Below are positions 47,790 to 49,799 of a stretch of DNA of 64,000 nt, piece by piece. The notes beneath the pieces are model-generated. The model ran no database searches and had not been told where the DNA came from. It saw nothing but the letters and a program-made list of their open reading frames with translations. Both the position numbers and the translations under genes were made by a program. The stretch's first letter is position 1, and each line of letters starts with the position of its first letter. Origin of the DNA: Rhodospirillaceae bacterium (GTDB taxonomy: Bacteria > Pseudomonadota > Alphaproteobacteria > Azospirillales > Azospirillaceae); assembly GCA_037147415.1 (NCBI GenBank), contig JBAWVF010000004.1, positions 1,112 through 65,111 of the forward strand, written 5' to 3'.

Positions 47790-48794
47790 ATGACCCGAGT
47801 GCTTACCGGAACCTTTCCCCGTGTCCGCTTGCGACGCACCCGTTCCGAACAGTGGAGTCGCCGACTGGTTGCCGAACACCGGTTATCGGTTGATGATTTG
47901 ATCTGGCCGATGTTTGTGATCGAGGGCGAGGGGCGGCGCGTTCCCGTGGACTCGATGCCGGGGGTGGCGCGGCTTTCGATCGATCTTTTGGTCGAAGCGG
48001 TGGTCGAGGCGCGAGATCTCGGCATTCCTGCGGTGGCCTTGTTTCCGGTCGTGCCGCGCGAGCGCAAAACCCCGGAAGCCGAGGAGGCTTACGATTCCGG
48101 TAATCTCGTTTGCCGGGCGGTCCGGGCGCTGAAGGCGGCGGTTCCGGGCATCGGGATCATTTGCGACGTTGCGCTTGATCCCTACACCAGTCATGGCCAT
48201 GACGGGCTATTGCGTGACGGCCGGATTGCCAATGACGAAACCGTGGCGGTGCTGGTCCAGCAAGCCCTGGTTCTGGCCGAAGCCGGGGCCGATGTGATTG
48301 CCCCCTCCGATATGATGGATGGTCGGATCGGGGCGATTCGGGATGCGCTCGACCATGCCGGCCGGCACGGTGTTCAAATCTGTGCCTATGCGGCGAAATA
48401 TGCTTCGGCTTTCTACGGGCCGTTTCGCGATGCCCTGGAGACCGGCGGCTTGTTGAAGGGCGACAAGCGGACCTATCAGATGGACCCGGCCAACGGGGCG
48501 GAAGCACTGCGCGAAGTCGCGCTCGATCTGGAAGAAGGGGCCGACAGCGTCATTGTCAAACCGGGGCTGCCCTATCTCGATGTGATTCGCCAAGTCAAAG
48601 ACAATTTTGCCGTGCCGACCTTTGCTTATCATGTCAGCGGCGAGTATGCGATGCTGAAAGCGGCGGTCGCTGCCGGTTGGCTCGACAACGACCGCGCGTT
48701 GCTTGAAACTTTGCTTTCGTTCAAACGAGCCGGAGCCGACGCCATTCTGACCTATGCGGCGGTCGAAGCGGCTCGTCTGTTGCGCTTAAAGTGA
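47790..48794 (+). CDS. hemB: Porphobilinogen synthase (delta-aminolevulinate dehydratase)
   Basis: [31 protein letters not shown] is a HemB N-terminus. Also present are [29 protein letters not shown] and VKPGLPYLD. The start was trimmed from 47688. Confidence 0.95.
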
Positions 48795-49799
48795 ATCGGG
48801 GGCCAGCGTCACCACCGGCAGGTTAAGCTTGACCAGCGGGTTTTGCGCCGGCAACAGCCGGTTCAAAGGCTGCCGGGTGAGGCATAGCAGGGCCAAGCCG
48901 GGTGGAGTCGAGGCCAAGGTTGCCGCTAAGCTTTCAAACAGCGGCTGGTCGAAGTCAAGCCGGCGCCGCACGTTGTCGAAGTTGAGCAGGGCGATGTGGT
49001 GGGTGGGCGCGGTCGCCATATACCGTTTGAACAACTCCAGATCGCCGGGGGTCGCGGGCACCGCCTCGTTACAGCCGGCGATCCGTAGAATTTCCGCAAG
49101 CAGTCCGCGGCGGGAGCTGGCCTTGAACCCTTCGATGTCGAGCGTGGCCAGGCCGGGGATACGGTCGCGCAGGTCCATCACCATGGGCGTGCCGTCCAGA
49201 GCGGTATCGACCACGAGATTGACCGAACGGCCGGCCTTCATATGGTTCATCACGGCATCGCGCGCCTTGAGCCAAGCCAGCGCCGAGGTTCCTATTTGGG
49301 AGCTGCACGCGCCGAGCAGCTGTTGCCAGGGCGTGCCGCGTTTGCCGTTGCGCAGATCGATGACGGCCGACTCGGGAATTTTAATGCCGGCGGGCAGGGA
49401 GCAGGACTCGCGCATTACCGGGATGATTAAACCATATCGGAATTCGGGGTCGCGGGAGAGTGCGAACTTCATCTGCTCGACGCAGGAGGCATTGGCAAGG
49501 TAGCCCGGGCTCAGCACCAAAATCTGGCGTTCGGCGTCGGTCTGGGCTTCCATCAGGCGGCGGGTCGTTGCGGCCCCGACGGGAGAGCGCTCGGTATCGA
49601 TCAGCTCCTCGCCCCCGCCGGCATGCAGCATCGGCATGTCGGCCCCTCCGGCGCGCAAGACCGATACCAGCTGGCCTTCGACCCAATCTTTTTGGCCGTG
49701 ATCGTAGCTGATAAAGACCTTGGAAACCGGTGCCCCACCTGCGGAATCAGTGTATACGGCATTACCGAAGTAGCTGTAACTGCTGAAGACATTAGCCAT
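48786..49799 (-). CDS. TIR-like domain protein with C-terminal NTPase-like region lacking a Walker A motif
   Basis: TIR_2-type strand motifs are [44 protein letters not shown] and GLIIPVM. The start is at the ATG with AAGGA 8 nt upstream, and an alternative ATG lies at 49808. The 3' end overlaps hemB by 9 nt. Confidence 0.8.

Follow-up and report, generated by a model that had tools for sequence, protein, structure and literature searches.

In this work we focused on a gene coding for a Toll/interleukin-1 receptor (TIR) protein in a Rhodospirillaceae bacterium. The gene lies on a 64,000-nucleotide stretch of contig JBAWVF010000004.1 (assembly GCA_037147415.1), which we call the window and to which all coordinates given without a locus identifier refer. 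An initial annotation, made by a model from the sequence alone, had described the product as a stand-alone TIR-like protein with an NTPase-like C-terminal region, and thereby implied a self-sufficient anti-phage effector. We found that the gene encodes a real TIR protein fused to an AAA+-like domain without a nucleotide-binding loop, that glutamine occupies the catalytic position of its TIR domain, and that the ATPase gene which accompanies its more distant relatives is missing from its surroundings.

The open reading frame (ORF) is uninterrupted on the minus strand from 48786 to 49808, which corresponds to 340 amino acids from the first in-frame ATG at 49808. The second in-frame ATG, taken here as the start of the coding sequence (Table 1), is preceded 8 nt upstream by AAGGA, resembling a ribosome-binding site (RBS). 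The resulting product is 100% identical to an NCBI protein model (P0001) annotated as 'toll/interleukin-1 receptor domain-containing protein [Rhodospirillaceae bacterium]'. Residue numbers refer throughout to the 340-residue frame. The 3' end of the gene overlaps the convergent hemB gene by 9 nt (48786-48794), as had been described, and an aminotransferase gene lies upstream on the same strand, separated from it by a 138-bp spacer. Three promoter-like sites were found in this spacer against 0.6 expected in shuffled sequences, all of them consensus matches only. The order aminotransferase-TIR-hemB recurs in two more independent assemblies and is therefore not an assembly artefact. The GC content of the gene is 62.4% and not about 67% as first estimated, but its native character holds, with 59.4% in the window, 61-62.5% in the neighbouring genes and a GC content at third codon positions (GC3) of 0.77, similar to that of the adjoining genes.

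Domain architecture of the protein

The N-terminal region matched the Pfam model PF13676 (TIR_2) over residues 31-164 with 45.5 bits, against a gathering cutoff of 28, and the match covered profile positions 1-121 of 122. Foldseek aligned the N-terminal half with the TIR domains of TLR1, TRR-2 and TLR10 (probability 1.00, target-normalised TM-score, TMt, 0.59-0.76), and a profile of the family matched the TIR domains of Toll-like receptors (TLRs) in the PDB with an E-value of 7e-13. The full-length AlphaFold 2 (AF2) model, built from a 29-sequence family alignment, had a mean predicted local distance difference test score (pLDDT) of 89 and a predicted TM-score (pTM) of 0.85. The TIR domain scored mostly above 90, and residues 1-22 remained below 50. 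The TIR_2 region proposed initially is thus borne out by both profile and fold, and all the motifs quoted in the initial annotation are present in the translation.

Modelled alone, the C-terminal domain of 170 residues reached a pLDDT of 95.2 and adopted an alpha/beta AAA+-like core. Foldseek related this core to ORC4, ORC2, Cdc6, the AAA domain of Sir3, MuB, TnsC and PAB2304 (query-normalised TM-score, TMq, 0.56-0.71, E 1e-4 to 1e-2), and it can be superposed as a five-stranded alpha/beta AAA+ core. In the family alignment no member carries GxxxxGK[ST] after the strand SVNLV, so that the absence of a Walker A motif, already noticed in the initial annotation, was confirmed. A Walker-B-like and a sensor-1-like strand were recognised (Table 1), and the arginine of the family 'SR' motif that follows the latter is kept in the window protein. 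The protein ends five residues past the last core strand (E332-335) and therefore has no lid domain, and the AF2 model of the C-terminal region contains no sensor repeats, winged-helix or lid module.

Searches with hidden Markov models (HMMs) in Pfam, NCBIfam and PADLOC returned no NTPase-family match to the window protein even at E<=10, and no NACHT or NB-ARC HMM matched. NCBIfam gave no match of any kind, and the best PADLOC match was SAVED_TIR at a non-significant E of 0.03. The profile and structure checks suggested with the initial annotation therefore supported the TIR half and its fold, but yielded no profile match for an NTPase. The P-loop/STAND-like core that it proposed is indeed an NTPase-like alpha/beta structure, but one resembling ORC/Cdc6 AAA+ proteins and not STAND or NACHT proteins; lid and sensor repeats are both absent. 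As modelled, this half of the protein amounts to an AAA+ core reduced to its minimum, of ORC/Cdc6 type and predicted to be unable to bind nucleotide through a P-loop. A single-sequence search of the PDB gave TIRAP and MyD88 as best matches; these were weak (E about 0.1) and were used for residue alignment alone.

The catalytic column and the clade of the window protein

In the profile alignment the family invariant C-x-H-E-[ML] falls on W-C-H-Y-E-L of TLR1 and TLR6, which places the catalytic glutamate three residues after the cysteine (Cys+3). In the window protein this column is occupied by Gln112. The glutamate of S-C-V-E-Q, to which the initial annotation had assigned the catalytic position, is one residue off and corresponds to Glu111 at Cys+2. 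Among the collected homologues the column holds glutamate in 125 and glutamine in 11, the latter being exactly the members of one clade (P0001-P0011) that includes the window protein. Counted on the true column, glutamate was present in 80 of 80 wider-family loci from metagenomes. A phmmer alignment set SCVEQM of the window protein opposite WCKYQM of TIRAP, glutamine against glutamine. In the TIR domain of TLR4, the corresponding E750Q exchange abolishes the production of cyclic ADP-ribose (cADPR) (bioRxiv 10.64898/2026.04.20.719644). To judge from this residue, NAD-cleaving (NADase) activity has probably been lost in the window protein.

A TIR protein that is still competent as an NADase and acts on its own against phages, as effector or sensor and with Glu111 as the catalytic base, would have in its favour the true TIR fold and the Cys+2 residue, which is conserved as aspartate or glutamate throughout the clade. 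The accessory nature of the gene, whose position varies between genomes, also fits such a role, as do the matches of wider-family TIR members to the PADLOC ThsB1 and SAVED-TIR models (E 1e-7 to 1e-10 over both models; for ThsB1, 5e-9 to 1e-6). However, plant TIR domains with D-E at these two positions still require the glutamate. The catalytic column is glutamine in 11 of 11 clade members and glutamate in every other member examined, the same exchange inactivates TLR4, and the window protein itself has no significant PADLOC match. In addition, the gene lies in housekeeping surroundings with native GC3 and not in a defence island. We therefore consider an autonomous NADase quite unlikely.

The clade comprises 11 clusters with 52-89% identity among members and 32-40% identity to the rest of the family. 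When C-terminal domains were clustered by neighbour joining, its members formed one monophyletic group set apart by a long stem; its placement among the deeper branches, which are short, is uncertain. It is rare, being present in 2 of 185,579 species genomes (one genome per species), both of them metagenome-assembled genomes of Rhodospirillales. All members share an N-terminal extension of about 30 residues and an 11-residue insertion (Table 1). Fixed substitutions surround the BB loop and helix alphaC (F75S, A77V, Q84R, D86L, S106N and H111D/E, in addition to E112Q), and others are found in the C-terminal domain (Y286F and R295A, with SR changed to SQ in most members).

The ORFs of the clade are all intact, with 94 invariant columns. 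Within-clade identity is 69% in the TIR domain versus 60% in the C-terminal domain, and in both domains the nonsynonymous divergence (dN) ranges from 0.19 to 0.47 versus about 1-2.6 for the synonymous divergence (dS); dS is saturated, so that dN/dS is a rough upper-bound indication. The clade is under purifying selection in both domains. These observations bear on the idea that the gene is a functionless remnant of a broken defence operon. Such decay would account for the loss of both the partner gene and the catalytic glutamate, but it is hard to reconcile with full-length ORFs preserved in 11 clusters of such diverse identity, with a TIR domain more conserved than the C-terminal domain and a dN well below dS, or with an invariant clade-specific insertion and a gene that has its own promoter-like sequence and RBS. 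We regard it as highly improbable.

Scans of viral contigs with the clade and the wider family found no relatives, and a fold search of BFVD gave no convincing full-length match; because of these negative results, a phage origin or an anti-defence function is without support.

The wider family, its ATPase partner and the genomic contexts

A word-indexed search of 5.8 billion proteins yielded 59 homologue clusters, and a profile of the C-terminal domain searched against 1.84 billion representatives yielded 337, among which 271 had E<=1e-10. Most of the 337 are proteins of about 300 residues in which a TIR domain precedes the C-terminal domain. Homology to the window protein is full-length in 48 matches (E 1e-28 to 1e-52, 87-92% of the query, 32-40% identity).

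In 51 of the 52 testable wider-family loci an ATPase gene lies directly downstream on the same strand; a metagenome locus counted as testable if its TIR gene was complete and 300 bp or more of sequence followed it. This partner has about 740-770 residues, 5-6 predicted transmembrane (TM) segments within the first ~200 residues, and intact Walker A (GRRRxGKS) and Walker B (LLLAVDEYE) motifs. Its Pfam matches, to AAA_22, ATPase_2 and AAA_16, are weak to moderate, and the members of its family, at least 307 clusters, bear no annotation beyond 'hypothetical' or 'AAA family ATPase'. Partner homologues are found in Acidobacteriota, Planctomycetota, Poribacteria, KSB1, Gammaproteobacteria and a Rhodopila lineage, and the two-gene pair (loci L004-L090) is scattered over the first five of these groups and Myxococcota. 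In one locus (L006:8906-10944) two overlapping ORFs, at 8906-10180 and at 10123-10944, stand in place of a continuous ATPase gene, owing either to a frameshift, which makes it a possible pseudogene, or to an assembly error.

The two genes are fused in frame in P0135 (967 aa) and P0176 (839 aa). The C-terminal domain also stands behind an adenylate/guanylate cyclase, an alpha/beta-hydrolase, a trypsin plus TIR combination, or a domain that matches Lon_C weakly (E 4e-4, slightly under the Pfam cutoff), and it occurs N-terminal to an AAA_21/SMC_N ATPase; proteins with such other architectures or fusions are P0073, P0087, P0116, P0119, P0135, P0139 and P0176. Beyond the generic TIR matches, neither gene of the pair matched the system models of PADLOC v2, and no description of a TIR-pseudoAAA+ / TM-ATPase architecture was found in the part of the literature that could be searched. 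Because the operon linkage is tight, fusions and swapped N-terminal domains occur and the phyletic spread is patchy, the pair reads as a conflict system and may represent an apparently undescribed candidate for phage defence.

The flanks of the pair are mixed, with some defence-type matches (PDC-S70, mad3/8, DrmC, LmuB, DolB, bSEFIR) among many housekeeping genes. DUF502 was found in 4 of 91 neighbouring ORFs scanned in 17 wider-family loci. A third component downstream of the ATPase gene was considered and rejected, as an ORF of about 280 residues recurs only in the related loci L061, L072, L083, L078 and L028. Four of these five loci come from a single metagenome (Ga0247727), and one example of the ORF is L083:8237-9076.

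The ATPase gene was not found next to the TIR gene in any of the window-clade loci examined. A tblastn search at E<=1 detected no homologue in the window or in L001-L003 of the clade, and in L097/L098 and the P0005 locus no AAA-type gene was called beside the TIR gene. The only Walker-A ORFs of the window have ABC-transporter-like motifs, and no ThsA-like, SLOG, Macro, SAVED or Argonaute partner gene lies near the TIR gene. The statement that no partner gene is adjacent was therefore correct. The implied self-sufficiency was not, since the relatives are the first gene of a two-gene operon and the clade is without the second.

The window protein could still work in trans with the canonical TM-AAA+ partner or another AAA+ protein encoded elsewhere, as a non-catalytic subunit or one with an alternative chemistry. 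The C-terminal domain is kept and constrained, the arginine of the 'SR' motif is retained, partner homologues exist in a Rhodospirillales lineage, and the window covers only 64 kb of the genome. Operon linkage is nevertheless the rule for this family, every independent clade context with readable flanks is devoid of a partner, and conserved C-terminal residues have been replaced in the clade (R295A, Y286F and, in most members, SR by SQ). On balance we find this arrangement unlikely.

The position of the gene is itself variable. In three relatives with aminotransferases that are 76-79% identical, the synteny of XdhC, an 87-aa ORF and the aminotransferase is preserved (L091-L096, compared with 49938-52093 in the window), but an alpha-2-macroglobulin gene (1594-1731 aa) lies downstream, and both the TIR gene and hemB are absent there. 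The TIR gene is therefore accessory and lies at a synteny breakpoint. Together with the different loci occupied by the other clade members, this argues against a conserved housekeeping family fixed at the hemB locus, a possibility that the initial annotation had raised.

Two lineages of the clade, P0011 (loci L003/L009) and P0007 (L097/L098, and L010 with a TIR fragment near-identical to P0007), have a gene of 583-584 codons for tetratricopeptide repeats and a family 41 glycosyltransferase (TPR+GT41, similar to O-GlcNAc transferase, OGT) on the same strand, 26-100 bp downstream of the TIR gene; the GT41 proteins of the two lineages are about 70% identical. This pairing, and the P0002 loci where a family 1 glycosyltransferase (GT1) and Maf_flag10 are convergent to the TIR gene, could mean that the TIR protein was recruited to work with GT41 or with further genes of protein glycosylation, perhaps as an adaptor for substrates. 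The loci with GT41 also share cobW upstream, however (L003 and L097, with Fur beyond cobW in L003 and also upstream in the P0005 locus), so that the pairing may be synteny inherited in one lineage. No GT41 homologue was found in the window by tblastn, and there is no fusion or co-variation evidence for the association, which leaves this explanation very unlikely.

The surroundings of the TIR gene in the window are of housekeeping type and include ubiE, ubiB, two-component systems, an L,D-transpeptidase, glycogen phosphorylase and XdhC, besides the aminotransferase, hemB and a hybrid histidine kinase. An ADP-ribosylglycohydrolase gene (PF03747, 208 bits) is located at 43369-44553 on the minus strand, 4.2 kb from the TIR gene. 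It was rejected as a functional partner, since three genes intervene and none is present in other clade loci, and its proximity is probably a coincidence. Other features of the window are two tandem paralogous Peptidase_M15_2 (DUF882) genes (41470-42417 and 42626-43318, plus strand) downstream of the L,D-transpeptidase (YkuD) gene at 39405-41231, a gene for a 392-aa pentapeptide-repeat protein (38191-39369, minus strand; PF00805, 197 bits) adjoined by a 330-aa ORF without Pfam match (37227-38219), and a gene of the Uma2 family, putatively restriction-endonuclease-like (53581-54177, minus strand), which overlaps by about 50 nt a 193-aa ORF without Pfam match (53049-53630, minus strand).

Table 1. 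Features of the TIR gene and its product in the window, and of related loci
Feature	Location	Strand	Remarks
Coding sequence of the TIR-pseudoAAA+ protein	48786..49799	-	337 aa; starts at the second in-frame ATG (49799)
Clade-specific N-terminal extension (ends GAPVSK)	49719..49799	-	Predicted disordered; missing from the ~300-aa wider family, partly conserved in the clade
TIR domain, aa 31-167	49308..49718	-	Pfam TIR_2, Foldseek, profile against TLR TIRs of the PDB
Clade-specific 11-aa insertion	49605..49637	-	Immediately ahead of betaB and the BB loop; clade-invariant P-x-L-H-x-G-G-G-E-E
Codons Glu111-Gln112, helix alphaC	49473..49478	-	Gln112 in the canonical catalytic-Glu column (Cys+3); Glu111 at Cys+2
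C-terminal ORC/Cdc6-like AAA+ alpha/beta core, aa 176-335	48804..49283	-	No P-loop or lid; AF2 and Foldseek
Strand beta1 (invariant SVNLV) and loop at the Walker A place (DTALDG)	49191..49226	-	No GxxxxGK[ST]
Walker-B-like strand IALLNFD	48975..48995	-	Family consensus LALxHFD; alignment and AF2
Sensor-1-like strand LALLCLTR	48873..48896	-	Family consensus LVLLxQSR; alignment and AF2
AT-rich spacer, 43.5% GC	49800..49937	-	Two sigma-70-like promoter matches, 49935-49908 and 49856-49828 (consensus only)
Example loci of the TIR/ATPase pair	L005:158-1066 and 1079-3382; L007:8001-8915 and 9029-11251
P0002 locus			AphA-like gene diverging from TIR; TIR converging on GT1 and Maf genes (Maf_flag10, flagellin-glycosylation-like)
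P0011 and P0007 loci			cobW diverging from TIR; TPR-GT41 gene after TIR
P0005 locus			Fur diverging from TIR
TPR-GT41 genes	L003:9040-10794; L097:2623-4374; L098:1764-3515; L010:783-2534

Proposed role and comparison with known TIR systems

With somewhat better than even confidence, we read the window protein as a catalytically silent, repurposed TIR protein of a Rhodospirillales clade, which would serve as a scaffold or regulator and not as an autonomous NADase effector. Our confidence in the descriptive parts of this picture, namely the domains, the replacement of glutamate by glutamine, the partner pattern, the rarity, the selection and the non-conserved locus, is much higher than in the package as a whole.

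The ancestor would have been a two-gene module, in which a catalytically competent TIR-pseudoAAA+ protein was encoded directly upstream of a membrane-anchored AAA+ ATPase. The pseudo-AAA+ domain would dock whichever domain it carries at its N-terminal side (a TIR, cyclase, hydrolase or protease domain) onto the ATPase oligomer, perhaps in the way that P-loop-less subunits such as ORC2/3 and the clamp-loader delta subunit join active AAA+ rings, and clustering on the oligomer would then switch the TIR domain on. The fold, the gene fusions and the exchange of N-terminal domains lead us to infer the docking step. The window clade would have kept both folds while the ATPase gene disappeared from its vicinity, the catalytic glutamate became glutamine and the BB-loop/alphaC surface was remodelled, and it would have gained the invariant loop and the N-terminal tail. 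Most likely the window protein works by binding and not by catalysis, through contacts between TIR domains or docking of the pseudo-AAA+ domain; it would then be a scaffold or a regulator, or else a subunit with a dominant-negative or decoy effect.

Several points weigh against this reading. The loss of NADase activity is deduced from one residue and the remodelled surface around it, and the conserved acidic residue (Glu/Asp) one position earlier might substitute for the missing glutamate. That the clade is nested within the wider family depends on short internal branches. The 64-kb window leaves room for a partner elsewhere in the genome, and homologues of the ATPase occur in 'uncultured Rhodopila sp.' (Rhodospirillales). 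The defence role of the parent pair is suggested by gene organisation and distribution, with mixed neighbourhoods and only some PADLOC hits. Finally, an hhalign comparison of the C-terminal domain with the partner ATPase, in which IALLNFD falls opposite LLLAVDEYE, gave a non-significant E of 0.07. A paralogy between these two was examined on the same alignment, which pairs their Walker-B and sensor-1 strands, and was set aside as too weak.

The closest system is the TIR-pseudoAAA+ / TM-ATPase module itself, which has no name so far. The window protein is homologous to its first component over both domains, in the same order, with the same degenerate P-loop region and the strand SVNLV. The clade differs from it in having no adjacent ATPase gene, in the glutamine for glutamate, in the 11-residue insertion and the extension of about 30 residues, and in the substitutions of the BB loop and alphaC.

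Animal adaptor TIR proteins such as TIRAP/MAL and MyD88 act as scaffolds. The window protein has the TIR fold in common with them and, like TIRAP, carries glutamine in the catalytic-Glu column. In contrast to these adaptors it has a pseudo-AAA+ domain and neither a death domain nor a PIP2-binding motif, and the sequence similarity is weak (E about 0.1). The shared glutamine is most likely convergent.

With Thoeris ThsB, AbTir, the TIR-APAZ protein of SPARTA and the TIR-SAVED proteins of CBASS, the window protein shares a TIR_2-type domain, but unlike Thoeris and the other bacterial NADase TIR proteins it has no catalytic glutamate, no match to the ThsB model and no adjacent Ths effector gene. 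TIR-STAND and NLR-like proteins (Avs with TIR effectors, bNACHT, TIR-NLR) resemble it in the general logic of coupling a TIR domain to an oligomerising NTPase. They combine TIR, an active STAND NTPase and sensor repeats in one polypeptide, whereas the NTPase-like domain of the window protein is inactive and minimal, and the active ATPase of its relatives is a separate membrane protein. The alpha/beta core can be superposed on those of ORC2, ORC3, the AAA+-like domain of Sir3 and PAB2304, among which the P-loop is not functional in ORC2 and Sir3. It differs from these degenerate members of the ORC/Cdc6 clade by its low identity to them (10-16%) and by the absence of a helical lid and a winged helix, and no link to replication or DNA is evident. 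The window protein is therefore a member of the TIR superfamily that lacks the features defining NADase-competent TIR proteins (SARM1, ThsB, AbTir, plant TIRs and the TLR4 type), Thoeris and STAND/P-loop NTPases.

A bolder version of our reading, which we put forward tentatively and consider rather doubtful as a whole, is that an immune NADase TIR protein was turned into a non-enzymatic adaptor, with glutamine as in MyD88 and MAL, fused to a nucleotide-blind AAA+ docking domain and maintained on the chromosome by purifying selection. It would serve as a scaffold, or as a decoy or dominant-negative regulator of immune assemblies built from TIR or AAA+ proteins, and the parent pair, with its exchangeable N-terminal domains, would be a new anti-phage system. 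If true, bacteria would offer a counterpart to the change from enzyme to adaptor that has been proposed for TIR signalling in animals.

Whatever its exact role, we rate the window protein as an unusual TIR architecture and as an orphan, naturally 'E-to-Q', that derives from a candidate defence pair apparently not described before. Its annotation as an active stand-alone NADase effector calls for caution, as the catalytic residue needs to be checked first. The parent pair, with its fusions and swapped N-terminal domains, is a concrete candidate for a defence system, in which the pseudo-AAA+ domain may represent a novel type of module for docking effectors. Bacteria, plants and animals all rely on TIR domains for central functions of their immunity, and how enzymatic TIR proteins gave rise to pure adaptors is a question of evolutionary interest. 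The clade offers a natural case in which the catalytic glutamate has become glutamine in a domain that is still under selection, and makes this transition directly testable.

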